Of a stretch of 64,000 nt of DNA, positions 1-19,500 are shown one piece after another; position 1 is the stretch's first letter, and each line of letters opens with the position of its first letter. The stretch comes from Candidatus Yanofskybacteria bacterium (GTDB lineage: Bacteria > Patescibacteriota > Minisyncoccia > 2-02-FULL-40-12 > GWA2-44-9). Below the pieces are notes generated by a model, which saw only the letters and a list, made by a program, of their open reading frames with translations, was not told where the DNA came from and did no database searches. Location of the stretch: assembly GCA_003151795.1 (NCBI GenBank), contig PLYL01000008.1, positions 3,103 to 67,102 of the forward strand. Direction: 5' to 3'. The position numbers and the translations under genes are program-made.

Positions 1-470
1 CTTCGGGCGACTGGAGTGGTTCAAAGGGTCCAAGCGGTAGTGAAGTTGTCGGACCGTTTGCAGTGGACGGCACCAAGACCTACACATTGACATGCGATGG
101 AGGCGTCGGCACGGCGGTTCTCGTCGTCGGCCAGGGGGGACCGGGCGGTGATGCCAACACTGTCACTTCGCCCGACGGTTCCGTGACGGTCACGATTGTC
201 CAGCTGATTCCGGCGGCTGGCCCGCTAGTACCAGGGCAGCCGCAAATGATGAAGGTGCACGTCGTTAACAGAGGCGACGATCAGATTGAAATAGAAAATG
301 ACGTTTTCAATTCCATACATGATTTTCCAGCTCGCTCCGAAAATGATTCGAACTGGGGATCATCTTTCGGATCTCTCTCGGGTTCGTTCCCCATTATCCA
401 TCTGAAAGGAACATATAGCAAGACGTATCCACAGGTATCGTGGACGATGGAGTTCCCGGGCTGGCCTTAA
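1..470 (+). CDS. hypothetical protein, C-terminal part; reading frame is open to window edge (5'-truncated)
   Basis: ORF 63..470 in track; same frame has no stop back to nt 3; followed by intrinsic terminator. Confidence 0.5.
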   Translation, partial: SGDWSGSKGPSGSEVVGPFAVDGTKTYTLTCDGGVGTAVLVVGQGGPGGDANTVTSPDGSVTVTIVQLIPAAGPLVPGQPQMMKVHVVNRGDDQIEIENDVFNSIHDFPARSENDSNWGSSFGSLSGSFPIIHLKGTYSKTYPQVSWTMEFPGWP

Positions 471-479
471 GTCTCGCGA

Positions 480-530
480 AAGAAGCCCCGTGCTGAAAGC
501 ACCGCTTCTGGCGCGGGGCTTCTTTTGTTT
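480..530 (+). terminator. rho-independent terminator
   Basis: 11-bp stem aagaagccccg/cggggcttctt followed by ttttgttt. Confidence 0.6.
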
Positions 531-540
531 ATAAGATTGT

Positions 541-570
541 TTGTTATAGGTGTTCATTTAGTTTTATAAT
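541..570 (+). promoter_or_regulatory. putative sigma70-like promoter (-35 ttgtta, ~18 bp spacer, -10 tataat 565-570) giving a near-leaderless transcript at ATG 577
   Basis: hexamer spacing read from sequence; no SD before ATG 577. Confidence 0.35.
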
Positions 571-576
571 AGCGGT

Positions 577-3006: not shown

Positions 3007-3461
3007 TGACTAATTATTTTAAAGCAAATAAAAAATTTATTAGTGCCACGGTTGCGGTTGCGGTGATTATCGCGACAGCCATTTTATTGGGCCGAGCCGG
3101 ATATTTTCAGCATAAATTAACAAGCAACGAATTTTCCGGTATGATTACGGGTGTTCAGTATCGGGTTATCACGATGAAAGGGGTTTATACTGTTTCGCAA
3201 CAGACGAATACTGATCCGGCGGTCATCCGCGAAATTACAGCCTCAATCACTCCCGAAGCCAAGATTTATAAGCAATCGGGGAACCCGTTCGCGGGCCAAG
3301 CGGTTAAAACATCAGTTACGTTCGATGAGTTGACCGCCGACATTCAACAGAAAAAATTTGTGTTAGCTAAAATCCACGCCAGTTATGACATTAACTTTAA
3401 GTCCCATGTCGTTCCCTATGAAGTCGTATATACGACAGATCCGCATGTACCCATTCAATAA
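3006..3461 (+). CDS. hypothetical membrane-anchored protein
   Basis: ORF with N-terminal hydrophobic helix; ATGA start/stop overlap with upstream gene. Confidence 0.55.
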   Translation: MTNYFKANKKFISATVAVAVIIATAILLGRAGYFQHKLTSNEFSGMITGVQYRVITMKGVYTVSQQTNTDPAVIREITASITPEAKIYKQSGNPFAGQAVKTSVTFDELTADIQQKKFVLAKIHASYDINFKSHVVPYEVVYTTDPHVPIQ

Positions 3462-3463
3462 TT

Positions 3464-4285
3464 ATGATTAAAAAATTTCTATTATTAACACTATTGGTAT
3501 TAGCAGGGTTATCTTTTTATTTTCATCATGGCGTTCAAGCGGCGGGAACCGCAACTATCACCGCCAATGGCCAAAGCGGCATTGTTTGGGTCCCGCTTTG
3601 GTCTCAACCAACAATAGCGTGGACTTCAGATGCCAGCACTTGCGATGTTTTTATCGGTACGAATCAAGGCCATGGATCAGAGCCTTGGTCCTCGGGCCAT
3701 CCCAGCTATACCGCGACTTCTCCGCCGATTGGGGCAGACACGGTATTTTTCTTGGTATGTTATACCTCGCCCGATTTCGCGAACCCGTCTAGTTCCGACG
3801 AAGTAACCGTGAGGCCTCTTCCAGCCCCCACCGCCTCCATCATCGTCAATGGCTCACATGATGTGACCACATCCGTTCCTTCTGGAACTGCCGTAGAAGT
3901 AACATGGTCTTCCAATGCCACTTACTGCCAGGTGCATCGCGGTGACGCCACAAATGACGGCCCAATTGCCTGGGAAGGTGCAAATGGTGACGTCAGTACT
4001 CCTATTACGTCATACACTAGATTTCGTTTATATTGCCAGGGTCCGAACGGTTCAGCTTTTGACCAAGCCTCGGTGGATGTGTCTGCTCCACCCGCCGTCG
4101 TTACGCATATCAGTTGTGACCCGGGTACCGTAGCATATGGCGGATCATCAAATATATCTTGGTCTTCAAGTTATGCCTCGTCATGCACGGTCTCGCCGGG
4201 CGGCTGGTCGGGAATTTCCGGCGGGCCTAACTCGACCGGCACGCTTTACTCCTCGACGACTTACACGATAAGTTGCAGCCGGTAA
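3464..4285 (+). CDS. secreted protein sharing a ~90-aa domain (near-identical at DNA level) with 577..3006
   Basis: signal peptide MIKKFLLLTLLVLAGLSFYF; segment ITANGQSGIVWVPLWSQPTIAW... shared with upstream protein. Confidence 0.75.
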   Translation: MIKKFLLLTLLVLAGLSFYFHHGVQAAGTATITANGQSGIVWVPLWSQPTIAWTSDASTCDVFIGTNQGHGSEPWSSGHPSYTATSPPIGADTVFFLVCYTSPDFANPSSSDEVTVRPLPAPTASIIVNGSHDVTTSVPSGTAVEVTWSSNATYCQVHRGDATNDGPIAWEGANGDVSTPITSYTRFRLYCQGPNGSAFDQASVDVSAPPAVVTHISCDPGTVAYGGSSNISWSSSYASSCTVSPGGWSGISGGPNSTGTLYSSTTYTISCSR

Positions 4286-4292
4286 CAACTAA

Positions 4293-4322
4293 AATCCGCC
4301 CGCTTCGGCGGGTTGATTTTAG
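4293..4322 (+). terminator. rho-independent terminator
   Basis: aatccgcc/ggcgggtt stem, loop cgcttc, then gatttt. Confidence 0.65.
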
Positions 4323-4360
4323 TTGACCAAAAGTCATTTTTTTAGTACTATTTTCGAATT

Positions 4361-4906
4361 ATGATTGAAACACATCCCTTACCGGTTCACGTGGTGCGTA
4401 TCAAATTATTGAAGTCGCTTTTGGCGATGATTGAGAACTCTGCCAAGGGTGGCAACAACTATTTTTTCCGTAATTTATGGGCCGACGAAGACGGTAAAGA
4501 AATTGATATTTTGGAAAACGGTCAAAATTCGTGCTGTGCGCATGTGACTTGGATTTTGTATCTCCTGAACGATACCTTGGAGTATGCTAAAAAACCACAC
4601 TGGATAAAGTTTAAGCACGCGACGGTATTTTCGACCGAAAAAGATTTGCTGGCGAACGGCTGGTTTGAGATTAAAGACCATCGGCCCGGGGCGGTAATTA
4701 TCTGGGAACCGAGAACGGCTTCGGTGCACGGACTTTTGGGCGACAAAAACGCGGAGCTTCAGCACATTGGTTTTTGCGTCAGCGAGACCGAGGCGATTAG
4801 CAATGATTCCAAAAAGACAGGCTTCCCAGTTCGCCACCACATTACTTACAATGAAACTCGGCCGATTAAAAAAATTCTCTGGCATCCGGAGCTAGATAAT
4901 GACTAA
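4361..4906 (+). CDS. putative papain-like (C39-like) cysteine peptidase, paralog of next gene
   Basis: Cys motif NSCCAHVTWILYLL and downstream His (SVHGLLG) arranged like next ORF. Confidence 0.45.
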   Translation: MIETHPLPVHVVRIKLLKSLLAMIENSAKGGNNYFFRNLWADEDGKEIDILENGQNSCCAHVTWILYLLNDTLEYAKKPHWIKFKHATVFSTEKDLLANGWFEIKDHRPGAVIIWEPRTASVHGLLGDKNAELQHIGFCVSETEAISNDSKKTGFPVRHHITYNETRPIKKILWHPELDND

Positions 4907-4908
4907 TC

Positions 4909-5442
4909 ATGCAAGACATTAAAATCGAAGCCCCACTTTGCAATCAGTATGATAAAGCCCACGACGAATCGTGGGCTTATCGGATGTGCGCGCCGTGCTC
5001 GCTTTGGATGCTTCTGAAGCATCATGATTCAGGGTTTGCTTTATCGCCCTTGGATTTGCGTGACAAACTTATGGCCCGCGATGGCTATCTAGAGAATATC
5101 GGCTTTAAGCATCAGGCCATCGCCGATATGGCTCGCGAATACGGGCTGCCGCTCACGTACGCGAAGAGATTTTTTTACACGCCAGAAGAAAAGGAAATTG
5201 GGATGGCAATCATCGACAAAAATCTGGAAGCTGGCCAGCCGATCATGGTTTCTATGTTCTCACATTTTAATCCGGCTCGGGGCGGCCACATGCTTGTCAT
5301 TCACGGTCTGCAGAAATTTAATGGCGTAACAATCGGTTATTATATCCAAAGCTCCGACGCTTCGTTCCGGGGTCATAATTATTTCGTTACCAAAGAAGAA
5401 TTCGTCCCTAACTGGCGCGGAGGATTGGTGTATAAGGACTAG
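4909..5442 (+). CDS. peptidase C39_2-like cysteine peptidase
   Basis: MCAPCSLWMLL (cf. C39 CGPTSLAMVL nucleophile motif) and GGHMLVIHG His motif. Confidence 0.55.
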   Translation: MQDIKIEAPLCNQYDKAHDESWAYRMCAPCSLWMLLKHHDSGFALSPLDLRDKLMARDGYLENIGFKHQAIADMAREYGLPLTYAKRFFYTPEEKEIGMAIIDKNLEAGQPIMVSMFSHFNPARGGHMLVIHGLQKFNGVTIGYYIQSSDASFRGHNYFVTKEEFVPNWRGGLVYKD

Positions 5443-5490
5443 CAAAAACCCTCAAATTGTGATAGATTTTGGCTACCCAAATTGATATTT

Positions 5491-5567
5491 GGGGGTGTAG
5501 CTCAATTGGTTAGAGCGCGTCCCTGTCACGGACGAGGTTGCGGGTTCGAGTCCCGTCACTCCCGCCA
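5491..5567 (+). tRNA. tRNA-Asp (anticodon GTC)
   Basis: cloverleaf folded by hand: acceptor GGGGGTG/CACTCCC, anticodon stem CGTCC/GGACG with loop CTGTCAC, T-loop GGTTCGAGT, encoded CCA. Confidence 0.9.
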
Positions 5568-5624
5568 GTAAAAATGATATGATTCCCAAAGGTCGATGTA
5601 CTTAATTAACCTAATTACAAAACT

Positions 5625-5780
5625 ATGATAAAAGGAAATTTTCTTGGGGCGGCGATTGTCGCAATAATCTACACGGTCTATATCGTATGGAATCCTCTTG
5701 CGGCGAAAGGACACACAGTATTGATATTGGTGATTCTTAACGCTTTGACTATCGTGTTGATGGCTTTTGCATTCAAATGA
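5625..5780 (+). CDS. small hydrophobic protein (51 aa, two predicted TM helices)
   Basis: ATG..TGA ORF MIKGNFLGAAIVAIIYTVYIVWNPLAAKGHTVLILVILNALTIVLMAFAFK, below track cutoff; sits just upstream of ABC transporter. Confidence 0.3.
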   Translation: MIKGNFLGAAIVAIIYTVYIVWNPLAAKGHTVLILVILNALTIVLMAFAFK

Positions 5781-5807
5781 CACAAAGTTGAAATAAGAAG
5801 TTTCTAC

Positions 5808-6602
5808 ATGAACAATATAATTGAGGTCAGGAACCTCACGAAAAAATTCGATCATTCAAACGCCGTCGACGACGTGTCTTTTTCGGTGGCTGAAGGCGAG
5901 ATTTTTGCTTTTCTCGGGCCGAATGGCGCCGGCAAATCGACGGCCATCAGAATGCTGACGACCTTGCTCCACCCCACCAGCGGCACCATGGCCATCAATG
6001 GATTGGATCCCGTCCAGAAGCCCGATGCGGTTCGGCGGATGTTCGGGATTGTTTTTCAAGACCCCAGCCTGGACGATGAATTAACCGCTTGGGAAAATAT
6101 GGAATTTCACGGGATACTCTACGATATTCCCAATCCTTTGCGCCGAGACCGCATGAAGCAACTTCTTGAATTCGTCGAACTCTGGGACCGCAAAGATGAT
6201 TTAGTGAAAGAATTTTCCGGCGGGATGAAACGGCGCCTGGAAATCGCCCGGGGCCTGCTCCATCATCCGAAAATTATTTTTCTCGATGAACCGACGCTTG
6301 GCCTTGATCCGCAAACTAGAAACGGGATGTGGATGTATCTCAAAGAGCTGAATAAGAATGAAAACACGACCATTTTTTTCACCACGCACTACATGGAAGA
6401 AGCCGAGCGCATCGCCCAAAGAATCGCCATCATCGACCACGGGAAAATAATCGCTTCAGGAACATCGGAGGAATTGAAACGGCAAACGGCCACCGCTTCA
6501 CTCGAAGAAGCTTTCCTGAAGCTGACCGGAAAAACAATCCGCGACGAATCCGTTGGTTCGGCCGAGCACATGCGGACGGCCCGGCGCATGTGGCGGAGAT
6601 AG
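5808..6602 (+). CDS. ABC transporter ATP-binding protein
   Basis: Walker A GPNGAGKST, signature SGGMKRRLEIA, Walker B IFLDEPT. Confidence 0.9.
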   Translation: MNNIIEVRNLTKKFDHSNAVDDVSFSVAEGEIFAFLGPNGAGKSTAIRMLTTLLHPTSGTMAINGLDPVQKPDAVRRMFGIVFQDPSLDDELTAWENMEFHGILYDIPNPLRRDRMKQLLEFVELWDRKDDLVKEFSGGMKRRLEIARGLLHHPKIIFLDEPTLGLDPQTRNGMWMYLKELNKNENTTIFFTTHYMEEAERIAQRIAIIDHGKIIASGTSEELKRQTATASLEEAFLKLTGKTIRDESVGSAEHMRTARRMWRR

Positions 6603-7360
6603 CTTTTATTATTATGAAAAAAATATACATTCTTTGGCTAAGGCAAATTAAGCGGTATCTGCGGTCCCGCTCGCGCATCGTGGGTTCTTTGGCTCAACCA
6701 ATCTTGTTCCTGCTGGCGCTAGGCTATGGTTTTGGTTCGGTGTTCCAGCAGGCCGGCCAGGGCAATTACGTCGAATTCTTGGCGCCGGGGATTATCGGCA
6801 TGGGCATTATTTTTACGGCGATTTTTACCGGAATCGAGATTATCTGGGATCGCCAGTTCGGATTTTTAAAAGAAATGATGGTCGCGCCGGTCTCGCGCTT
6901 GAGCATCATGTTCGGGCGGACGCTGGGCGGGGCGACGATTGCCGTGATGCAAGGCATTATCGTGCTCGCCCTTTCGCTTTTCTTGGGATTCCATCCTTAT
7001 GCCTGGGCGGGGATTTCGCTGGCCATCGGGGTGATGTTTTTGATTGCCCTTCTTTTTACCGCTCTTGGCACCATGATTACGTCGTTGCTCGACGACATGC
7101 AGGGGTTCCAGCTGATTATGAACTTTCTGGTGATGCCCTTGTTCTTTCTGTCCGGCGCCTTGTTTCCGCTCAAGGGCCTGCCGCCGGCCCTGGCCATCAT
7201 CGCCCGACTCGATCCGCTCTCCTACGGAATTGATGCGCTCCGCATCCTCCTGATTAATGTCGGCTTTTACGGCCTGGGCACGGATATTCTTGTTTTGACC
7301 GCGGTAACCGCCGTCTTCTTGTGGCTGGGAAGTTATTTCTTCAAAAAAATTCAGATTTAA
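6590..7360 (+). CDS. ABC-2 type transporter permease
   Basis: 6-TM ORF overlapping ATPase stop; ABC-2 permease-like. Confidence 0.75.
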   Translation: MAEIAFIIMKKIYILWLRQIKRYLRSRSRIVGSLAQPILFLLALGYGFGSVFQQAGQGNYVEFLAPGIIGMGIIFTAIFTGIEIIWDRQFGFLKEMMVAPVSRLSIMFGRTLGGATIAVMQGIIVLALSLFLGFHPYAWAGISLAIGVMFLIALLFTALGTMITSLLDDMQGFQLIMNFLVMPLFFLSGALFPLKGLPPALAIIARLDPLSYGIDALRILLINVGFYGLGTDILVLTAVTAVFLWLGSYFFKKIQI

Positions 7361-7370
7361 CAAAATTACG

Positions 7371-7757
7371 ATGCAAATAATGAAGCACAAGCATTTTTGG
7401 CGTTACGTCTTTGCAGGATTATTGATTGCGCTCATCGCGCTGCTGGGCTGGCTGATTTTTGACGTCAGAGATTTGTATCGCGGAGGCATGTTAAGGCCGA
7501 CGGGGGGATTCCGCCGGACGTATGTTCGAGAGCAGGCATCGGATACTTCTCAAATTCAGAGTTGGATGACTTTTTCGTACATTAATCATATTTTTAATCT
7601 GCCGCCAGCCTATCTGGCGTCGGCGTTGGCCATTCAAGACAGCCGTTACCCGGATTTAATCGTTAGCCAGTACGCCAAAAGTAAAAACCTGATTGATGCT
7701 GATTTTTTGAAGCAGGTCCAAGATTCAGTGAGTCAGTATCTTCAGAGCGCTCATTAA
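7371..7757 (+). CDS. hypothetical membrane protein
   Basis: ORF with N-terminal TM helix. Confidence 0.5.
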   Translation: MQIMKHKHFWRYVFAGLLIALIALLGWLIFDVRDLYRGGMLRPTGGFRRTYVREQASDTSQIQSWMTFSYINHIFNLPPAYLASALAIQDSRYPDLIVSQYAKSKNLIDADFLKQVQDSVSQYLQSAH

Positions 7758-8360
7758 ATGAGTTTAGTCTTTCAGAACATTCTTGGCTGGATTCTGGTCT
7801 ATAAATACTCCACGCTCTTTGCGGTTTCGTTTCTTTCTTCTCTCGGGGTGCCGTTGCCGGCCGCCGCGAGCACGGTGGCCTCGGCCGCTTTCGCGAGCCA
7901 GGGCTATCTCAACCTGGGAGCGGTTTTAATCGTGGGCCTGCTCGGAAATATTATCGGTGATTTCGCCGCCTACGGCTTAGTGAGAAAATACGGCAAACCG
8001 GTTTTGTACTGGTTTCATCTGGGGAAAGTGGTCGAATCTCAAGTTTTAAAAAATGTCGAGAATATCGAGAATACCTACAAAGCCACGGTGATCATGGCCA
8101 GCCGTTTTCAGGATCAGGCCACGACCCTCGTGAATATTATTGCCGGCCTGGGCAACATGGACTTCAAGCACTTCGCGCTCTATGCGGTTATTGGCGACGT
8201 CCTGCAGATTTTGTTTTACAGCGCTATCGGCTATTTCTTCGCCGGGAGCTGGCAGTCATTATATAACGCGGTTGGCGTGTTTGGCTGGCTGATTATTCTC
8301 GGCACGACCGTGGTGGCGATTCTAGCCTCGCGCAAATTTGTAAAACAATTATTAAAATAA
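7758..8360 (+). CDS. DedA/TVP38 family membrane protein
   Basis: DedA-like pattern (…LGVPLPAAASTVASAAFASQG…GNIIGDFAAYGLVRKYG…). Confidence 0.65.
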   Translation: MSLVFQNILGWILVYKYSTLFAVSFLSSLGVPLPAAASTVASAAFASQGYLNLGAVLIVGLLGNIIGDFAAYGLVRKYGKPVLYWFHLGKVVESQVLKNVENIENTYKATVIMASRFQDQATTLVNIIAGLGNMDFKHFALYAVIGDVLQILFYSAIGYFFAGSWQSLYNAVGVFGWLIILGTTVVAILASRKFVKQLLK

Positions 8361-9451
8361 TGAAAAAAGATATCGTCCTTTATTTTGCGGTTCTTTGGAT
8401 TCTGGCGCCGGCGGCGAGCCAAGCCAGCTATCATTTTGCCGATTTTAAGGGCCATCCGCCGCTGCATATTTATTCGGCCAATAAAAAGACGCCGACCGGC
8501 CTATCGCCGGATAAAATCAAATCCGCGTACAACTTGCCGGCCACGGGTGGCAAGGGCGTCATCGCGATTATTGACGCTTATGCTTCGCCGACGCTCGAGA
8601 AGGATTTAGCCGTCTTTAATTCTGCTTTTGGTCTGGCTTCCTGCACGGTCGCGAATGGCTGTCTAGAATTGCACCCCATGGCCGCAAAAATGACCGCGAA
8701 TTCCGGCTGGGCTTTGGAAACCGCGCTCGATGTTGAGTGGGCCCACGCGATTGCGCCCCAGGCCAAGATTCTTTTGGTCGAAGCGGTGACGCCGAGCGGC
8801 GCAAATTTAATTAACGCGGTTGATTATACCCGTGGCCGAAGCGATGTTGCGGCTATCTCGATGAGCTGGGGCGGAGCGGAATTTTCTGATGAAACAACGC
8901 TTGATACTCATTTCGTCAGCAGTTACGGCGCGATATTTTTTGCTTCTTCCGGTGATAATGGCGCCGGGGTCAGTTGGCCGGCCTCGTCGCCGCATGTGGT
9001 CGGCGTCGGGGGCACCACATTGACGTTTAGTAAAACAGGCGCTTTTCAAAAAGAGTTAGCGTGGCCGGGAAGCGGGGGCGGGGTCAGCGCCTATGAATCC
9101 CAGCCCTCATTTCAAGCTGGCTATAATATCAGCAAAGCCAATAAGCATCGGGCCGTGCCCGACGTCTCTTACAACGCCGATCCGAAATCAGGCTACTCGG
9201 TCTATGAAAAAGGAGCGTGGTACGTGCTGGGCGGGACGAGCGCCGGCGCGCCGCAATGGGCGGCCATTCAAGCGTTAGGCGGAACGGCTTCGAACGATAA
9301 GTTTTATACCGACAAGGCAGGAGATAATAACAAGAATTACTTTCGAGACATCATAAGCGGAAGCAATGGCGATTGCACCTATTACTGCGACGCGCACAAA
9401 CACTACGACTATATCACTGGCCTCGGCTCGCCATTAACCGCAACATTTTAG
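8360..9451 (+). CDS. secreted S8/S53 (sedolisin-like) serine peptidase
   Basis: signal peptide; IAIIDAYASP… Asp region, GGTSAGAPQWAA Ser motif. Confidence 0.7.
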   Translation: MKKDIVLYFAVLWILAPAASQASYHFADFKGHPPLHIYSANKKTPTGLSPDKIKSAYNLPATGGKGVIAIIDAYASPTLEKDLAVFNSAFGLASCTVANGCLELHPMAAKMTANSGWALETALDVEWAHAIAPQAKILLVEAVTPSGANLINAVDYTRGRSDVAAISMSWGGAEFSDETTLDTHFVSSYGAIFFASSGDNGAGVSWPASSPHVVGVGGTTLTFSKTGAFQKELAWPGSGGGVSAYESQPSFQAGYNISKANKHRAVPDVSYNADPKSGYSVYEKGAWYVLGGTSAGAPQWAAIQALGGTASNDKFYTDKAGDNNKNYFRDIISGSNGDCTYYCDAHKHYDYITGLGSPLTATF

Positions 9452-10483: not shown

Positions 10484-11386
10484 GTGCTTACAACAGAGAT
10501 GATTGGCTCGTCGCACGAAACCGCCATGAATTCCGGGGTTGTCGAACTCCCTGGTCGTATCGTTCAGAGTGGACCCGTGTTCTATGGCACATCGGATCCA
10601 GTTCCAAATGTTTCGGAACTAATCTTGACGGCTATCGTGGCAATTCTGTGCCAACAGCCAGCTAAGTTTTCGGTCTATCGAGGTGGTCGAACTGAATACG
10701 CGAAGGCCTCGGAGCGCTATTCCAGGAATTTGGTTGATGCGGGGATTGTGCCATCGGTGGATGAAGCCATTCGTATCGTGGGAGAGTGGTTCGGCCTGCG
10801 GATCAATGTCGTTTCCTTCGAGACGATCATGGAGGCCGGCGGTATATGGAATATGCCGTTGATTGAAATCGCACAGGCCATTCGAACTTTGCGGCCAAAG
10901 CCACTACGTTTTTGCTACATGCCCGAGATTTATGTACCAGACAGCCCAGCCAAAACGATCTACACCAACGATAAATGGTTGGAGAAGAATTCTCTAAAGA
11001 CAGTGGCCGATCTTCACGAAACGGGCGGCTGGTTATCGGGCGCTTCGATCCACTACTCGCTCCGGCGGTTCTCGGAGAAGTTTGCGGATCATATCCACGT
11101 CGTTCCATTCGGGACCAAAGGTGACGTTTATCGGATGTATGACGGAAGCGGTTCAAGGTTTGTTCTAGCTCCGGCTCTTCACATCCGTCCAGCAGGAGCG
11201 GAGCCAGAGTGGTTACCACTGGAATTGAGAACCTTCGCGGCTATCATTCAGCTCTGGCCAGAAGCTGAGCGAGTTCAGCTCCGAGATCGGCTTGTCTCGG
11301 AAGTCTCCAAGGGTTTTGAAGGAACGACCCAGAAAATTAGCTTGGAGTTTCGATCGGTTCAGGACTATCGAGTTACGATTGCCTAA
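10484..11386 (+). CDS. hypothetical protein (GC-rich relative to neighbours)
   Basis: 300-aa ORF, no recognisable motif. Confidence 0.55.
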   Translation: MLTTEMIGSSHETAMNSGVVELPGRIVQSGPVFYGTSDPVPNVSELILTAIVAILCQQPAKFSVYRGGRTEYAKASERYSRNLVDAGIVPSVDEAIRIVGEWFGLRINVVSFETIMEAGGIWNMPLIEIAQAIRTLRPKPLRFCYMPEIYVPDSPAKTIYTNDKWLEKNSLKTVADLHETGGWLSGASIHYSLRRFSEKFADHIHVVPFGTKGDVYRMYDGSGSRFVLAPALHIRPAGAEPEWLPLELRTFAAIIQLWPEAERVQLRDRLVSEVSKGFEGTTQKISLEFRSVQDYRVTIA

Positions 11387-13270: not shown

Positions 13271-14401
13271 ATGAATATTACAGTTCCAGAAGATAATAAC
13301 CTGTTAGATAAAGTTGAGGCAAGGCAAGATGCTGAGGGTTTGCGAATCAAGCGATTCTTGGCGATGCCGGATCTATCGCGTACTGAAGGCAGTCCGATCA
13401 AGGAGGTTGTTGAACGGATTCTCGCGCTCCCTGATTTTGCGGGCTTGGATGTTATTGAAGTTCCGGAAATAGTGCCGACTGATATTCATTTTGATCTATT
13501 TGATTTTCCCGCCGATCATCCGGCGCGATCTAAATCCGACACGTATTACGTAGACGATAACCATATTCTTCGCACCCACACGACGGTGATGTGGTACTAC
13601 TATCTGCAGGATCCTGATGTTAAACGCCGTATGGCTGAGGGTGAGCCCGTAGGTTGTTTCTGTTTTGGCAAGGTCTATCGCAAAGATGAGATTGATCGGA
13701 ATCACATGAATGTCTTTCACCAGATTGACGGTTGGTATCTCGCCCCAAAAGATAAAAAGATAATTGGTGCGAAAGAATTAGAAGAGGCTCTCCGAGGAAT
13801 TGGTCGGGCGGTATTTGGTCCAGACACCCCGCTCAATATAATTCCGGATACTTTTCCATTTACTGATCCATCCCGTCAAATGGAAGTAGAAAAGAAGGGT
13901 GTCTGGCTCGAAGTCTTGGGGAGCGGTGTCGTGAAGGGGAGCGTGCTCGAAAAATTTGGCGTGGATTCTTCTAAATGGAACGGTTGGGCGTTTGGGCCGG
14001 GTATTGAACGTCTGGCGATGGTTTCCATGGAATTGCCCGATATTCGTTTGCTCTGGTCACAGGATGAGCGGGTGAAGAAACAGCTCAAGCTCGGCCAGAA
14101 ATTCAAAGAAGTTTCCAAGTACCCACCAATCGTTCGCGATATTTCGTTCATCGTCCACAAGGATTTCATCCCCAACAATTATTTCGATTTAATTCGCGAT
14201 ATCGGCGGAGATTTGGTGGAAGAAGTTCATCTTCTCGATAAATACGAAAACGCCGAAAAATTCGGGCCCGATAAAATCAGCTATACTTACCGTATCACTT
14301 ATCGCTCTATCGACCGCACTCTCACGACCGAAGAAATTGAGCCGCTTCAAGAAAGAGTAATCTCGGAAACCAAGAAACAGTTCCAAGCGGAAATCCGGTA
14401 G
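13271..14401 (+). CDS. pheS: phenylalanyl-tRNA synthetase alpha subunit
   Basis: class II aaRS motifs (FPFTDPS…; GWAFGPGIERLAM motif 3). Confidence 0.9.
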   Translation: MNITVPEDNNLLDKVEARQDAEGLRIKRFLAMPDLSRTEGSPIKEVVERILALPDFAGLDVIEVPEIVPTDIHFDLFDFPADHPARSKSDTYYVDDNHILRTHTTVMWYYYLQDPDVKRRMAEGEPVGCFCFGKVYRKDEIDRNHMNVFHQIDGWYLAPKDKKIIGAKELEEALRGIGRAVFGPDTPLNIIPDTFPFTDPSRQMEVEKKGVWLEVLGSGVVKGSVLEKFGVDSSKWNGWAFGPGIERLAMVSMELPDIRLLWSQDERVKKQLKLGQKFKEVSKYPPIVRDISFIVHKDFIPNNYFDLIRDIGGDLVEEVHLLDKYENAEKFGPDKISYTYRITYRSIDRTLTTEEIEPLQERVISETKKQFQAEIR

Positions 14402-14403
14402 TT

Positions 14404-15321
14404 ATGTATAAATATCATTTGCCAAAACCAATTATCATAAAGCTCAATGATGAGTCAGGTTTTCGGTTAAGACAAAAAGCGGCAGAACATATTTCCATAA
14501 ATCAAAATAAAACCGGCGCCGAGCGGGGAAGTTCCGAGGAGCAAGGCTTTGGGGCGCTCGCGGAGATGGTTATACGAAATAAATTGGGTATGCCGGAAAT
14601 AAATCCCAAAGACCATCCTTTAGGATATGACCTCCTACTCCCTTCTGGAATAAAAGTTGATGTTAAATGTCGCGGCGGAACATTACCGTTTAAGGAAGAA
14701 TACGAAAGTAGTGACGGTATCGCAAGGGAAGCAAAGCATAATTTCTTCGCGCGCCAAATGCATGACGAAAGACTGGACGCCGATATTTATGTTATGACCC
14801 ATCTTGAAACTCCCAGCAAAAGAGAACTCCCGGGTACGACCAGACAAAGAAAATGGATATTGTACGTTTGCGGATGGGTATCAAAAGAGCGGGTTGCGAA
14901 TGAAGGCGTTTATCTGCCGCGAGGCTCTCTCACTGAACAAGGAAGAACATGGTTTCCGTATCGCGGGCAAGAGATAGAATATTATAATCGTAATCTGAAC
15001 GGATTAGAGAAGATGGAAGATTTATTGAGCATTGAATTGCCAGACGTTGAGAAAGACAGAAATCATAAGGGTGATTTAAACTTAACTTCCGCCGACGCAA
15101 TAAGGATAGCCTATGATCTTATTGGCCGTGGAGTGTTAAACGAAAAACACCTTGCTTTTATTCAGAAGGAAGCGGGTATATCAAAAATCGTGAAACCGAT
15201 TCTGAACCCGAATCAATATTTTCACTTGCTGTACTGGCTTAAAGAAAAAGGCGCTCTGACTGAAGTAGAAATAAAAAAAGCGAAAGAGATCCTTAAAGAA
15301 GAACCTTTTGATGGAATTTAA
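14404..15321 (+). CDS. putative PD-(D/E)xK nuclease, candidate restriction endonuclease partner of adjacent methyltransferase
   Basis: 'GYDLLLPSGIKVDVKCRGG' fits D…(D/E)xK; AT-rich; convergent with MTase gene, 4-nt overlap of stops. Confidence 0.35.
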   Translation: MYKYHLPKPIIIKLNDESGFRLRQKAAEHISINQNKTGAERGSSEEQGFGALAEMVIRNKLGMPEINPKDHPLGYDLLLPSGIKVDVKCRGGTLPFKEEYESSDGIAREAKHNFFARQMHDERLDADIYVMTHLETPSKRELPGTTRQRKWILYVCGWVSKERVANEGVYLPRGSLTEQGRTWFPYRGQEIEYYNRNLNGLEKMEDLLSIELPDVEKDRNHKGDLNLTSADAIRIAYDLIGRGVLNEKHLAFIQKEAGISKIVKPILNPNQYFHLLYWLKEKGALTEVEIKKAKEILKEEPFDGI

Positions 15322-16433
15322 AATAGCCTACTTGTATTGGCTCTGTATTGAGCCGCCGCCTCTTTCGTTCTTTTTCTAGAAATCTCCACATAGTCAACCT
15401 TATGCTTTTTAAAGAGATAGACTTCTTCATTTTTCTCAATCCCAATAAATTTTCTTCCTTCCAAAACTGCCGAGACAAGAAAGCTTCCGCTCCCACAAGT
15501 ATTATCTAATACAATATCACCCTCTTTAGTAAAGGTGCGAACAAGATAACGGCCAAGCTCTATAGGTTTTTGTGTAGGATGAAAAACTTCACCTTCGCTC
15601 TCGGCGGTTTTAAAATAAACTACATCGGTCGGATACCTCTCACCGTTACTTTTTACCTCTACTGTTTTGAAGTCGCCGTAGCTTCCTGTTAGCTGATCTT
15701 TTCTGAATCCTTTATTGTACGGTTCGCCGTATGTCATTTGAGGATTGTAGATTGGCTGATTTTTGTAAAAGATACAAATGTCTTCGTGTTTTCGCAGCGG
15801 CTGTTTTTTTGCGTTCAAAAAATTTGTGGGCTTTGATTTAATCCAGGTAATTTTGTACTTGAAAAGTTTTGGTTTAGAGAGCATTAAGTTAGCCGTAAAA
15901 AGTCCTTGGCCCGTGAGAGCGATTGCCCCGTTATCTTTAATAATCCGCTCGTAGTGTGTCCATAGCTGATCCAGCGGGATCACGCTATCCCAATGATTTT
16001 GAGTAGTGCCGTAGGGTAAATCGCACAAAATCATGTCCACAGATTTTGAGGGTATATCCACCATTATTTCCAAACAGTCGCCTTTGATTACCTTGTTTTC
16101 AAAATCAGTGATTATTTTTTTGCTTTTCTCTACTTTTGCTCCTATTTCTTCCGCTCCCATATTTTTTCGTAGGTACCATAAGCAATAGGTATTTACTGGC
16201 AGGCCCTCTTGATTGGCGCGTTGTTCAAGTTCCAGATAAGAATCTGTTCCAAGTAGGCCACGTAATTCACTACTCCCAAAATTAGCAATATTTTTGTATA
16301 GATCTTTATTCCTTTCTCCAAAGGCTAAGATAAATCCCTTTGCTTTCGGGTTAACATCTTTGTAGTCGGGGAAATAGACTGCTTTGAAAGTTTGGTGACT
16401 CGGCATAGATATATTATAGTATGATACCCCCAT
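15318..16433 (-). CDS. site-specific DNA methyltransferase (N6-adenine/N4-cytosine, beta class)
   Basis: motif IV 'DLPYG' (DPPY variant) precedes motif I 'DNTCGSGSF'; 'HPTQKP' motif. Confidence 0.85.
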   Translation of the reverse strand: MGVSYYNISMPSHQTFKAVYFPDYKDVNPKAKGFILAFGERNKDLYKNIANFGSSELRGLLGTDSYLELEQRANQEGLPVNTYCLWYLRKNMGAEEIGAKVEKSKKIITDFENKVIKGDCLEIMVDIPSKSVDMILCDLPYGTTQNHWDSVIPLDQLWTHYERIIKDNGAIALTGQGLFTANLMLSKPKLFKYKITWIKSKPTNFLNAKKQPLRKHEDICIFYKNQPIYNPQMTYGEPYNKGFRKDQLTGSYGDFKTVEVKSNGERYPTDVVYFKTAESEGEVFHPTQKPIELGRYLVRTFTKEGDIVLDNTCGSGSFLVSAVLEGRKFIGIEKNEEVYLFKKHKVDYVEISRKRTKEAAAQYRANTSRLF

Positions 16434-16448
16434 TATTTATATATGGTT

Positions 16449-16457
16449 TTATCCACA
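16449..16457 (+). promoter_or_regulatory. consensus DnaA box TTATCCACA upstream of gyrB
   Basis: exact 9-mer; single copy seen. Confidence 0.3.
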
Positions 16458-16487
16458 ATCCTAGACAAAACTATCCAGTCCGAACCC

Positions 16488-16516
16488 TTGTTTGGCGGGT
16501 AGTAAAATGCTACAAT
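16488..16516 (+). promoter_or_regulatory. gyrB promoter (-35 ttgttt, 17 bp, -10 tacaat)
   Basis: hexamers and spacing read directly; start codon 15 nt after -10 (very short leader, no SD). Confidence 0.5.
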
Positions 16517-16531
16517 TATACAGTATAAAAC

Positions 16532-19500
16532 ATGGCTGATAAAGAGCTCAAAAAATCCGAATATACCGCCAAAGATATCCAAGTTCTTGAGGGGCTGGAA
16601 CCGGTCCGGAAACGGCCGGGGATGTATATCGGCTCGACGGGCGTCGACGGCTTGCATCACCTCATCTGGGAAGTGTTCGACAACTCGATTGACGAAGCCA
16701 TGGCCGGCCACGCCCATCATATCGAGGTTGGGCTTTTGGCCGACAACAAAGTTCGCGTCGCTGACGATGGCCGCGGCATCCCGACCGATATCCATCCTAA
16801 GACCAAAAAATCCGCCCTCGAAACCGCGGCCACGGTCTTGCATGCCGGCGGTAAATTCGAACAAGGCGCGTATAAAGTTTCCGGCGGTTTACACGGCGTC
16901 GGTTTGTCTGTTGTAAACGCGCTCTCGACCTGGATGAAAGCCGAAGTCTATCGCAAGCCGGATATCTTCGCTCAAGAATACAAAATCGGCAAACCGCAGG
17001 GGCCGGTCAAAAAAGTCGGGACCACCAAAAAGACAGGGACGACGATTACTTTCCAGCCCGACCCGACTATTTTCCCCGATACAACCTTCGACCTGCCGTA
17101 TATTCTTAATCACATTCGCCAGCAGGCCTACTTGACCAAGGGCGTTAAGATTACCGTGACTGATGCCCGTAATCCGATTATTGTCGCCGGCAAAGATGGC
17201 AACCTGCCTGCCGGCAGGCAGGGAAAACAGGAAGCGCCGTTCGATTACACGTTTTATTTCGAAGGCGGGATTATGTCGTACGTTGATTTTTTGAATCACG
17301 GCGAAGAGGTCAAAAACAAAAACATTTTTTATGTCGGTAAGGAACAGCAGGACATGTTCGTCGAAGTTTCTCTGCAGTATATCGAAGAGCTCACGAGCCG
17401 AGAATTATCTTTTGCCAACAACATCCATACGATTGAGGGCGGGACGCATCTGACTGGTTTTCGTACCGCGCTGACCAGAATTTTGAATGACTACGCGCGC
17501 AAGAACGGATTTTTGAAAGAAAAAGACGATAACTTGTCAGGCGAAGACGTCCGGGAAGGCTTGACGGTGGTGATTTCAATCAAACTTCGCGAACCTCAAT
17601 TCGAAGGCCAGACCAAAGCCAAGCTCGGTACAACCGAAGCCCGCAATGCCGTCGAGACCGTGATGACCGTTGAGTTCACGGACTGGCTGGAGCGTAATCC
17701 GAACGATGCTCGGGCGATTCTCGAAAAAGTTATCCTGGCCTCGAAAGCCCGTCTCGCGGCCAAAGCGGCTCGCGATACGGTGCTGCGCAAGGGCGCCCTG
17801 GAAGGCATGACCTTGCCGGGCAAGCTCGCCGATTGTTCCAGCCGGGATGCTTCGGAATCCGAATTGTTTATCGTCGAGGGCGACTCGGCCGGCGGATGTT
17901 TTTCGGGCGATACAAAAGTCGCTTTGCTTGATGGCAGGAACCTTTCGTTTAAGGAATTAGTAGAGGAGGACATGACTGGTAAGAAAAACTACTGCTACAC
18001 CATCAAAAATGACGGCAATGTCAGCGTGGCCCAAATTTTACATCCGCGAATTACTAAAAAGAACGCAGAAATAATAAGGGTTACTTTAGATAATAAAGAG
18101 GAAATTAGATGTACCCCAGATCATAAATTTATGTTGCGAGACGGGACTTATAAGGAAGCTCAATACCTAACAAAAAAGGATTCGTTGATGCCATTGTATA
18201 GAAGGTTGTCTAAAATCGCCGGTCGGATAACCATCAAAGGTTATGAGATGGTATATAATCCCGCCGAACATTATTGGCGGTTCACTCATGTTTTGGCGGA
18301 TCAATACAATCTTGCTCGAGATGTCTATACTCCTGAAGGTGGGGAAGCTCGGCATCACAAAGATTTTAATAAGCTGAACAACAACCCCGACAACTTGGTT
18401 CGTATGGGGAAACAAGAACATTTAATGTTTCATACGCAATGGCTTGAAAAGACAGCCCGAACACCGGAAGTATTAGAAAAACTGCGTAAGATTAGACAAA
18501 GTCCTGAATATCGCGCCAAAATAAGCCAGACCATGAAAATGCCAGCCATGCGGGCAATGCTTAGTGAACGCGCGAAGAAACAATGGGAAAATAAAGAATA
18601 TAAGGAATTTATGAATTCCAAGTTTTTAGAATTCTATAATTCCAATGAAGAATATCGAAAAACTAATAATAAACTTCTTAATAAAGCCCAAAAAACTTAT
18701 TGGGCCAGTAAAGACAATCGTCATGAACAGGCCAAGCGAGTTGCAGATTTCTTTGATAAAAATCCGGAATACCGAGCCTTGCTTTCTCAACAGGCGAAAC
18801 GGCAGTGGGACAATAAAGAGCTGGTGGCTTGGCGAAGTTTGGAGACTAAAAAACAGTGGACCCCCGAGTTCAGAGCCAAGAGAAAAGAGGCTTATAGCAA
18901 AACATACTTTACCCATACGATTAAATTTATGAAGGGTATTTTTGATCGGGATCATTTTCTTGATCAGTATGATGTCTTGAGAATTCAAAATAAAAGTCGA
19001 AATTTGTTACGAAGTGAAACATTCTGCCACAGGTTCTTTGACGACAATCCAACCGCCATGCTAGATGCGGTAAAAAACTATAACCATAAAATTAGGAAGG
19101 TAGAGAAATTAATTGAATGGACTGATGTCTATGATTTAGAAGTCTCTGGGACTCACAATTTTGCTTTGGCAAGTGGTGTCTTTGTTCACAATAGTTCCAA
19201 GCAAGCCCGTAATCGCCATACCCAAGCCATCTTGCCGTTGCGCGGGAAGATTTTGAATGTCGAAAAAGCCCGTCTCGACAAAATGCTCGCCTCGCAAGAA
19301 ATCCGCAATTTGATTATCGCTATGGGTACGGCCATCGCCGAGGAGTTTGATTTATCCAAATTGCGCTACCACAAGATTGTCATCATGACCGACGCCGACG
19401 TTGACGGCGCCCATATCCGGACATTGTTGCTCACGCTTTTCTATCGATATTTCCCGCAAGTTATCGCGGGCGGCCATTTGTATATCGCACAACCGCCGTT

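Follow-up and report, generated by a model that had tools for sequence, protein, structure and literature searches.

In the 64,000-nucleotide stretch of Candidatus Yanofskybacteria DNA analyzed here (the window), two convergent genes, one for a methyltransferase and one for a 305-aa protein, lie between pheS and gyrB. Their presence raises the questions of what the 305-aa protein does, whether the two genes function together, and how they came to occupy a place where one might have looked for pheT. A preliminary description had proposed that they form a Type II restriction-modification (R-M) system. We consider it highly probable that positions 14402-16457 represent a horizontally acquired Type II R-M cassette in the pheS-gyrB spacer of a CPR chromosome, with the following main features:

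14402-16457, both strands: whole cassette (R gene, M gene and M promoter region), delimited by blastn homology and by cassette-free relatives
14404-15321, plus strand: R gene, encoding a 305-aa putative Type II restriction endonuclease
15318-16406, minus strand: M gene, encoding a 362-aa DNA methyltransferase, recognized by PF01555, PADLOC, PDB sequence matches and motif order; the longest open reading frame extends to 16433 (371 aa)
15318-15321, palindrome: TTAA common to both convergent stop codons
16407-16457, minus strand: putative cassette-borne M promoter/operator region, with two blocks invariant in five independent cassette copies

Both open reading frames are as first described, namely 14404-15321 on the plus strand (305 aa) and 15318-16433 on the minus strand (371 aa), and both have hundreds of homologues. 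The reported 4-nt overlap at their stops is the palindromic TTAA, and the same overlap is seen in the homologous loci L001, L004, L007 and L090. The ATG at 16406, which is M10 of the long reading frame, serves as the conserved start and gives a protein of 362 rather than 371 aa; homologues have no start codon farther upstream, and the 362-aa database protein P0176 is 100% identical to M. Truncation of M in L001 and L007 was rejected, as the short calls reflect the choice of start codon and the 362-aa frame is intact.

M is matched by Pfam PF01555 (N6_N4_Mtase) at 1.7e-24 and by PADLOC MTase_II (PDLC03251) at 2.4e-63, and its sequence matches in the PDB are CcrM, M.RsrI and M.MboIIA (E-values of 1e-13 to 1e-9, with all motifs aligned). 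Its parts are:

16155-16406, minus strand: N-terminal tandem ribbon-helix-helix (RHH) domain, predicted to bind DNA (residues 1-84), with a variable linker after it (residues 85-105)
M residues ~100-362: catalytic core and TRD, the latter at ~190-275
16011-16022, minus strand: motif IV, DLPY
15564-15581, minus strand: X-like motif, HPTQKP
15480-15506, minus strand: motif I, DNTCGSGSF

The beta-class motif order noted at the outset was borne out, with DLPY at residues 129-132, HPTQKP at 276-281 and DNTCGSGSF at 301-309 in the numbering of the 362-aa protein. Judged by its sequence, M is a beta-class amino-methyltransferase (N6/N4), and its product is most likely N6-methyladenine, since motif IV starts with D; the source annotations also suggest adenine. 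It shares PF01555, the circularly permuted motif order and a D/SPPY-type motif IV with M.RsrI, CcrM and M.MboIIA (PDB 1eg2, 6pbd and 1g60), but differs from them in having DLPY in place of DPPY and in its N-terminal domain. The latter has the beta-alpha-alpha fold of RHH proteins in two repeats within one chain, including the two-stranded ribbon. The closest relatives of M in cultured organisms are 285-aa methyltransferases of Lactobacillaceae and Rhizorhabdus plasmids (for example NZ_CP027195.1 and CP021186.1), to which its core and TRD are 62-68% identical without gaps. Unlike M, these lack an RHH domain and precede a Type IIG-like N6_Mtase/Eco57I gene of 909-924 aa in the same orientation, with no 305-aa nuclease. 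An orphan methyltransferase, such as a CcrM- or Dam-like cell-cycle enzyme, had been named, together with a non-nuclease fold for the partner, as what would undo the R-M proposal. Against the CcrM equivalog NF050803, which has a cut-off of 830, M reaches 63 bits, and it falls outside the orphan CcrM/Dam class in that a nuclease partner is always present, with R beside M in 55 of 55 loci, and in that the cassette is missing from the syntenic site in relatives.

The R protein belongs to an uncharacterized family that Pfam, NCBIfam, PADLOC and PHROGs do not contain, and searches with R against these collections, as well as phmmer and profile searches of the PDB, returned nothing significant; tblastn likewise found no match in PLSDB plasmids or GenBank phages. 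The structure prediction proposed earlier as a check on the fold of R proved informative: an AlphaFold model of high confidence shows the PD-(D/E)xK nuclease fold, and most of its top structural neighbours in the PDB are restriction enzymes, albeit at 12-20% identity, with a Foldseek E-value of 0.027 or worse and a TM score of ~0.3. The model and the alignment of homologues define these elements:

R residues ~1-200: N-terminal PD-(D/E)xK domain
R residues ~204-296: C-terminal helical domain
14563-14667, plus strand: predicted catalytic residues E54 (14563-14565), D76 (14629-14631), D86 (14659-14661) and K88 (14665-14667)

The segment singled out earlier as compatible with a D…(D/E)xK motif, GYDLLLPSGIKVDVK, corresponds to residues 74-88 of R and includes D76, D86 and K88, which are invariant in 20 sequences of the family, down to 24% identity; E54 is conserved in at least 90% of homologues over the same span of identity. 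These residues fit the PD-(D/E)xK layout, with a conserved acidic residue lying in helix 1, a D that begins strand 2 and (D/E)xK in strand 3. In an HMM alignment with the N-domain of Eco15I they fall on its E / AD / QIK residues, which mutation has shown to be needed for cleavage (PMC11347163). The model places R in the PD-(D/E)xK superfamily, of which it is a member with predicted metal-dependent cleavage. It stands outside the BisI family to which Eco15I belongs: the R profile reaches this family with an E-value of 1.4 across 50 residues only, its motif is DVK rather than QxK, and the R family is unmatched in Pfam and PADLOC.

Comparative genomics shows that R and M are strictly linked. The same convergent methyltransferase abuts R in 55 of the 55 metagenome loci with room for one, and again in all nine contexts examined from databases, genomes and viral collections. 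Diverged R homologues (39-50% identity) adjoin gamma-class Eco57I-type methyltransferases, one of them beside GmrSD, and some variants keep the company typical of defence islands (GmrSD, ResIII plus methyltransferase). The family is widespread, comprising 522 clusters at 90% identity, and is confined to uncultured lineages. Two arrangements recur upstream of R among 75 related loci. An XRE-HTH gene (PF01381, 6e-14) ends 2 nt before the R ATG in 24 of them; from its sequence and its classical C-protein position, it can be regarded as C-protein-like. In 22 of the 75 R directly follows a tRNA gene; seven tRNA identities are represented, and some of these loci have an 18-nt leader that is conserved. 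The N-terminal module of M is a tandem RHH domain in most copies and a complete LexA in one variant.

The cassette has well-defined borders. At the DNA level it is 72-74% alike to the copies in L001, L004 and L007, which lie in unrelated contexts, and this blastn homology is limited to a region that runs from 14398/14401 to 16395/16457, the flanks being unrelated. The resulting unit of 2.06 kb sits after the pheS stop codon and before a retained gyrB promoter. Relatives without the cassette have gyrB 50-270 nt downstream of pheS, and gyrB directly follows pheS in about half of 80 related loci, all 80 of which lack the cassette. Since so many related genomes have gyrB directly after pheS, the cassette is an insertion into this spacer. 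Cassette loci in metagenomes display at least 29 distinct upstream flanks, showing that R and M move as one unit, and both reading frames were intact in the copies inspected. M is, moreover, the sole minus-strand gene between 577 and 25198 among open reading frames of at least 300 aa. The cassette is, then, a foreign and mobile unit in a Paceibacteria/Parcubacteria-type (CPR) chromosome. Recent horizontal transfer as the source of the ~80% identity between copies was rejected because synonymous sites are saturated.

The earlier remark that pheT is absent after pheS is correct, but the expectation that it should be there is not: pheS encodes a single-chain PheRS with a PheS core and an FDX-ACB domain, and since the clade uses this form, no pheT is to be expected. 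Displacement of pheT by the cassette was accordingly rejected, as was also indicated by the pheS-gyrB adjacency in relatives, and for annotation the gap after pheS is settled as not being a lost pheT. The claim that both R-M genes are poorer in GC than their flanking genes holds only in part. R (0.415) and M (0.395) lie below pheS (0.464), the gyrB N-extein (0.531) and the window as a whole (0.477), but equally low values occur in the upstream glycosyltransferase gene (0.386) and in the gyrB intein (0.392), so that low GC alone is not diagnostic.

The organization of the M promoter suggests how the cassette may be controlled. On the minus strand, 16407-16457 reads TGTGGATAAAA, a spacer of 20 nt, GGTATCATACTATAATATA and 3 nt before the ATG; the spacer and the flanks vary among the five independent cassette copies, and the two blocks, which may act as promoter or operator, are invariant. 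The TATAAT ends 6 nt upstream of the M start codon, and the M mRNA is for this reason probably leaderless or nearly so. Neither the LexA-fused M (L091) nor the RHH-less M (L092) is preceded by the blocks; their co-occurrence with the RHH domain is correlative. On the R side, the start codon comes 2 nt downstream of the pheS stop, and in the window copy R has no recognizable promoter or Shine-Dalgarno sequence. A scan for promoters and terminators across 14200-16600 gave no more matches than shuffled sequence did, with no terminator at the R/M junction, and tblastn with the C-like protein of L100 detected no C-like reading frame or remnant in the window. Lacking a C-like gene, a recognizable promoter and a Shine-Dalgarno sequence, R could be poorly expressed here.

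Putting these observations together, we propose that M would be transcribed from its own conserved cassette promoter as a leaderless or near-leaderless mRNA and would methylate a specific sequence in the host DNA, probably repressing its own promoter via the tandem RHH domain. R would probably rely for its expression on read-through from pheS and on translational coupling to it, given the 2-nt distance to the pheS stop codon, and would also meet convergent transcription from the M promoter. As a putative Mg2+-dependent endonuclease with E54, D76, D86 and K88 in its active site, and probably a homodimer, it would cut the sequence targeted by M when this is unmethylated; in this way DNA entering from phages or plasmids would be restricted, and a cell that lost the cassette would die.

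The cassette combines traits of several known systems. With a separate nuclease of ~300 aa, predicted to be of the PD-(D/E)xK type, and a single methyltransferase, encoded convergently and mobile together, it resembles orthodox IIP-like R-M systems. These include C-protein-controlled systems of the Esp1396I type, in which a C-R operon faces M; in many members of the present family an XRE-HTH gene terminates 2 nt upstream of R, although the window copy lacks a C gene and its R abuts a host gene without a conserved promoter. Departures from orthodox Type II systems are the RHH domain carried by the methyltransferase itself and the overlap of the stop codons in TTAA. Control by C-proteins is an established principle in R-M systems, and methyltransferases of the SsoII/Ecl18kI/EcoRII/MspI type repress their own promoters via an N-terminal HTH region (PMC3874152). 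M is comparable to the latter in that its N-terminus is a predicted DNA-binding domain, in that conserved blocks overlap its promoter, and in that this domain appears dispensable for catalysis, being absent from L092 and the plasmid homologues. It differs in that the domain is a tandem RHH and not an HTH, the enzyme is a beta-class amino-methyltransferase and not a C5-methyltransferase, and the genes are convergent and not divergent. The RHH control of M would be the counterpart of HTH autoregulation in M.SsoII, M.Ecl18kI and M.EcoRII. The kind of system remains an ordinary Type II R-M system, in which a methyltransferase with SAM-binding and catalytic motifs is accompanied by a separate, adjacent and co-inherited endonuclease gene. 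The Type II reading of the preliminary description is likewise supported by the fold of R, the motifs of M, their constant linkage, the diversity of neighbourhoods and the C-protein-like gene in many copies.

Might R instead be a modification-dependent nuclease? Such enzymes (Type IIM or IV), among them DpnI, are normally solitary, and hallmarks of classical R-M systems are an adjoining methyltransferase, its retention as a partner, and a C-protein gene. In this case M would not be the protective partner of R, and would either have a different specificity or be an independent epigenetic or anti-restriction enzyme. The nearest structural neighbours of R, which are the BisI-family enzymes NhoI and Eco15I as well as DpnI, are of this kind, but the similarity exists at the level of the fold only, given the identities, Foldseek E-values and TM scores above. 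The BisI-family NhoI and Eco15I N-domain (PDB 8q5n, 8q5m) are m5C-dependent PD-QxK enzymes, and BisI enzymes are solitary proteins of ~150 aa or are fused to a different C-domain (PMC11347163). R, in contrast, is 16-20% identical to them, has DxK in place of the Mrr-like QxK, possesses an additional helical domain of 100 aa and has an obligatory methyltransferase neighbour, positioned stop-to-stop and kept across methyltransferase classes, often with a C-protein-like gene as well. We hold a modification-dependent R to be extremely improbable. A very unlikely reading, too, is that M, with its RHH domain, is the functional core as an epigenetic or transcriptional regulator, and R a repair or recombination enzyme, homing endonuclease or toxin of an addiction module, with no role in defence. 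It conflicts with the patchy distribution of the cassette (none in the 80 pheS loci of relatives, at least 29 contexts), with the defence-island variants and the frequent C-like gene, and with scores of M far below the cut-offs of CcrM and other orphan equivalogs. Addiction as such hardly competes with the main reading, since Type II R-M systems themselves act as addiction modules (PMC3874152).

A different division of labour, in which R has no specificity of its own and serves as a nuclease subunit on M, which recognizes the target as in a split Type IIG/IIB or a Type III system, draws on three observations. Diverged R homologues lie beside 640-690-aa Eco57I/TaqI_C-type methyltransferases resembling nuclease-less Type IIG enzymes, the plasmid-borne relatives of the M core accompany the 909-924-aa Type IIG-like proteins, and the C-terminal helical domain of R is conserved. 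Yet R has the same architecture beside two unrelated classes of methyltransferases, and a specific docking interface would be difficult to square with this. The R profile also lacks detectable similarity to the N-terminal regions of the Type IIG-like proteins; hhalign with the first 350 aa of the plasmid partners gave a probability of <1%, and derivation of R from a split-off Type IIG nuclease domain was rejected. Furthermore, a convergent arrangement with separate transcription is typical of independently acting Type IIP enzymes. Overall, the subunit arrangement seems highly improbable, and we retain the reading of R as an independent endonuclease of a Type II system.

A search for the recognition sequence through k-mer avoidance in the window yielded no discriminating signal. 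GATC is the most depleted palindrome (O/E 0.48), but across 68 pheS loci of relatives the median O/E is 0.73 and the 10th percentile 0.46. As these relatives, which are not known to carry the cassette, share the depletion, and as the cassette itself contains six GATC sites, the depletion is not attributable to the cassette.

CRISPR is mostly missing from CPR/Patescibacteria, which are believed to depend on R-M systems and are hard to cultivate and transform. Were the family active, anyone manipulating these organisms genetically would have to reckon with its recognition site as a practical barrier, and the enzymes could be a source of new specificity. The fusion of RHH domains to methyltransferases, together with the LexA-fused variant, widens the known modes of R-M self-regulation.

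Both genes bear the mark of selection. The dN/dS is below 0.05 for each, with pN of 0.11-0.16 and pS of 0.74-0.95, and pN for the nuclease domain of R is 0.08-0.10, which is not above that of the essential PheRS. These substitution patterns identify R and M as functional genes under strong purifying selection. R is far more conserved than restriction enzymes usually are, and this might indicate a function different from arms-race defence. A broader scenario, which we put forward tentatively and think rather unlikely, is a Patescibacteria-wide R-M family with unusual control: a promoterless R would be captured again and again just 3' of highly transcribed co-directional host genes (tRNA genes in the 22 loci above, pheS here), and the methyltransferase would carry a swappable repressor. 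Taken with a degree of conservation that equals an essential aminoacyl-tRNA synthetase, this would suggest a domesticated or host-integrated module. Such a module could couple the level of restriction to host growth or SOS state, or act in DNA traffic between episymbiont and host, and would go beyond an ordinary arms-race defence gene pair.

The two convergent genes between pheS and gyrB, together with the promoter region of the second (window 14402-16457; hereafter the cassette), probably constitute a Type II restriction-modification system. This reading, raised as a candidate in the preliminary description, is well supported by the beta-class methyltransferase (M), the PD-(D/E)xK model of its partner (R), the linkage of the two, and the methyltransferase neighbors of diverged R homologues. 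Three features lift the cassette slightly above the routine: R belongs to an unclassified, strongly conserved family, almost confined to Patescibacteria among named sources; M features a tandem ribbon-helix-helix (RHH) domain, exchanged for LexA in one variant; and R has no promoter of its own and is repeatedly found behind tRNA genes. Both open reading frames lie where they had been placed from the sequence:

13271-14401, + strand: pheS, single-chain PheRS of 376 aa (PheS catalytic core and C-terminal FDX-ACB anticodon-binding domain)
14404..15321, + strand: R, 305 aa
15318..16433, - strand: longest open reading frame of M, 371 aa
16532-19933, + strand: gyrB, with an intein at ~17924-19192 (about 420 aa; Pfam Intein_splicing, residues 465-887)

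The stop codons of R and M share a TTAA palindrome (15318-15321). The conserved start of M is the ATG at 16406, not 16433; its homologues are 362-365 aa long, an identical database protein (P0176) has 362 aa, and in L001, another locus of this set, the codons upstream of the M ATG resemble those of the window yet hold no start codon. The lower GC ascribed to both genes holds against pheS and the gyrB N-extein (R 0.415 and M 0.395 versus 0.464 and 0.531; window 0.477), but equally low values occur in a native glycosyltransferase neighbor (0.386) and in the gyrB intein (0.392). Two open reading frames that precede the glycosyltransferase/PIG-L genes, 10484-11386 (+, 300 aa) and 8360-9451 (+, 363 aa), did not match Pfam.

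R had no match in Pfam, NCBIfam, PADLOC, PHROGs or PDB sequences, nor in plasmid or cultured-phage collections. In a large protein collection its homologues form 522 clusters, the best 120 of which show 77-87% identity and, with few exceptions, are exactly 305 aa long; clustering at 50% leaves 55, ~10 of them full length. Their named sources are all Patescibacteria (Kuenen-, Lloyd-, Azam-, Nealson-, Pace- and Gracilibacteria). In an alignment taking in homologues down to 24% identity, D76, D86, K88, N113, G157, W158, G174 and E192 are invariant, and 90% or more of the sequences keep E54 and K111. The AlphaFold2 model is confident (pLDDT 90, pTM 0.88); in it residues 1-200 form an alpha/beta domain and residues 204-296 a helical one. 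Its structural neighbors, with the figures as listed, are the fusellovirus nuclease D212 (6.6), the homing endonuclease I-Ssp6803I (5.9), DpnI (5.6), the Eco15I N-domain (5.3), Hjc (5.1) and EcoRV (4.9). The sole match of an R profile to PDB sequences was also the Eco15I N-domain, at an E-value (1.4) that alone is not significant. In this alignment E54 corresponds to the helix glutamate, D76 to 'AD' and D86-V-K88 to 'QIK', and mutation has shown the matching Eco15I residues to be essential for cleavage (PMC11347163). The D76...D86xK88 stretch forms a beta-hairpin in the model (DLLL, PSG, IKVDVK). This hairpin, its conservation and the Eco15I alignment make the D...(D/E)xK-compatible segment, picked out earlier by inspection, the predicted conserved active site of R, which the model places among the PD-(D/E)xK nucleases. 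The most distant homologues (24-30% identity), from marine (TARA) and ENA metagenomes, have long N-terminal extensions (P0165, 510 aa; P0168, 383 aa), in which, judged by eye, SAP-like helix-extended-helix segments, LGRLKELLRSLKLRLGGTKPKLLTRLDDFY, appear to be repeated.

The window and three cassette copies in unrelated contexts are 72-74% identical in nucleotides from 14398/14401 to 16395/16457, and outside these limits their sequences are unrelated. R was recovered in 80 metagenome loci; a beta-class methyltransferase abuts it on the opposite strand in 55/55 of those that extend 300 nt or more past the R stop, and the N-terminal domain of M is also present in 45 of the 46 loci with more room. 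Upstream of R, the flanks of the 57 metagenome loci that extend 600 nt or more group into 29 unrelated clusters. The sites occupied include the gap from a Y-family polymerase gene to a UvrD-like gene, the 3' side of a tRNA-Ser near rplS and infB, and that of a tRNA-Ala upstream of nusA. Four copies lie on contigs that IMG/VR classes as viral. R and M thus form one mobile unit; no integrase or transposase was found traveling with it.

Three diverged homologues bear on the function of R. One (L095, 50% identity; 687-3639) is convergent with a 686-aa Eco57I/N6_Mtase protein; another (L093, 47%; 1764-7050) is flanked by a divergent 662-aa Eco57I/TaqI_C methyltransferase and, on its other side, by a GmrSD Type IV enzyme; and the third (L094, 39%; 1-5936), on an archaeal-looking contig with the markers eIF-1A and RIO1, is downstream of two Eco57I-type methyltransferases. 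These methyltransferases are gamma-class enzymes of the Eco57I/TaqI_C type, 640-690 aa long and without a nuclease domain. A nuclease that keeps a methyltransferase neighbor across methyltransferase families bears the classical signature of a restriction endonuclease, and the retention seen here argues that the R family consists of such enzymes. Furthermore, in 24/75 cassette loci an XRE-type HTH gene of 73-81 aa (PF01381, 6e-14; for instance 2753-2998 in L100) has its stop 2 nt before the R ATG, the position just before R taken by the C (controller) proteins of Type II systems (PMC3874152). Three more loci hold truncated remnants (the last ~34 codons in L172 and L178, both just downstream of a tRNA-Arg gene, and ~20 in L153); the window cassette has neither gene nor remnant.

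M was correctly recognized as a beta-class amino-methyltransferase: it matches Pfam N6_N4_Mtase (PF01555, 1.7e-24), the PADLOC Type II methyltransferase model (2.4e-63) and phage family phrog_67, can be aligned to the solved beta-class enzymes CcrM, M.RsrI and M.MboIIA, and has motif IV (DLPY) ahead of HPTQKP and motif I (DNTCGSGSF). Residues 1-84, the RHH domain, are conserved across homologues and matched no Pfam model. This domain is modular: it is absent from the M core of L092 and from Lactobacillaceae and Rhizorhabdus plasmid homologues (62-68% identical), and in L091, an IMG/VR contig, it is replaced in frame by a complete LexA (LexA_DNA_bind and Peptidase_S24; 6905-8356, - strand). The latter gene, one apparent variant as assembled on its contig, is preceded by a canonical TTGACT-17-TATAAT promoter and a Shine-Dalgarno sequence, and adjoins a ResIII helicase, a 718-aa N6_N4 MTase and a TnsA-like nuclease. 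Two blocks 5' of M, TGTGGATAAAA and GGTATCATAnTATAATATA, are invariant in five independent cassette copies, and both are absent 5' of the LexA-fused and RHH-less forms; in the window the TATAAT ends 6 nt from the M ATG. By analogy with M.SsoII, M.Ecl18kI and M.EcoRII, which autoregulate via an N-terminal HTH rather than RHH (PMC3874152), the RHH domain may repress the M promoter. Among cultured organisms, the nearest relatives of the M core reside on plasmids, conjugative or mobilizable, from Lactobacillaceae and Rhizorhabdus (L096, NZ_CP027195.1, 3477-7105; L097, CP021186.1; L098, NZ_CP012279.1), in operon with a 909-924-aa Type IIG-like N6_Mtase/Eco57I protein, whose N-terminal regions showed no similarity to the R profile. 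In the Lactobacillaceae plasmids (L096 and L098) the relative adjoins a serine recombinase gene, with a SIR2 gene in L096 and TIR-domain genes in L098 as further neighbors.

The window PheRS was scanned against one genome per species, and 243 relatives, every one a Patescibacteria MAG, matched at 64-81% identity; the best 80 were retained as loci. About half of the 80 have gyrB just 50-270 nt past pheS, and none has R or M at this site. The gyrB promoter motif of these spacers, AAATGCTAyAAT, is kept in the window (~16505-16520), while a hairpin 3' of pheS in several relatives is gone; M is also the sole minus-strand gene (open reading frame of at least 300 aa) in 577-25198. The cassette is therefore an insertion at pheS-gyrB. 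As had been noted, pheT does not follow pheS, nor is it among the large open reading frames of the window, but to treat this as an anomaly was a misreading, the enzyme being single-chain with an FDX-ACB domain (PF03147, 7.4e-23). It resembles mitochondrial PheRS, scoring just below both model cut-offs (245 bits on TIGR00469, mitochondrial-type PheRS, cut-off 258; 245 on NF051887, 'PheS-related mystery ligase SrmL', cut-off 300), and a length of 376 aa is standard for the clade, this form being found in 243 Patescibacteria genomes. The gyrB directly adjoining the cassette carries an intein with a weak HNH_3 match (residues 608-631) and a GC (0.39) markedly below that of the exteins (0.49-0.53).

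The R ATG is essentially where cassette homology begins, nothing resembling a promoter or a Shine-Dalgarno sequence for R is evident in the window, and this ATG is 2 nt past the pheS stop, the same spacing as at the junction of the C-like gene and R in relatives. Hence R is likely to be expressed by read-through and translational coupling from pheS, which convergent transcription from the M promoter would oppose. In 22/75 loci a tRNA gene of the same orientation (Ser, Asp, Ala, Ile, Gln, Leu or Arg) directly precedes R, which starts 18-159 nt downstream (L004, 7884-8001; L007, 5564-5682; also L119, L108/L155, L131, L176, L147 and others). From the CCA end of the tRNA to the R ATG, an 18-nt leader, GATTNCCAACTTTGAACC, is conserved in several unrelated contexts. 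Either capture at a specific site or selection for read-through may account for the location behind tRNA genes.

Comparison of cassette copies gives a pN of 0.11-0.16 and a saturated pS of 0.74-0.95, implying a dN/dS below about 0.05 for R and M. Their protein identity of ~80% thus reflects constraint; recent transfer as its cause is ruled out by the saturated pS. For the R nuclease domain (pN 0.08-0.10), constraint equals or exceeds that on PheRS (0.125-0.24, window versus closest relatives), an unusual degree of conservation for a restriction enzyme. Constraint is looser on the R C-domain (0.19-0.23) and on the M linker, residues 85-105 (0.37-0.45). Of the palindromes in the window, GATC is the most strongly depleted (150 observed versus 312 expected under a Markov model, O/E 0.48; 0.39-0.45 in its last three quarters). 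This depletion is common but variable in related Patescibacteria loci (O/E 0.26-1.26), and the cassette itself holds six such sites.
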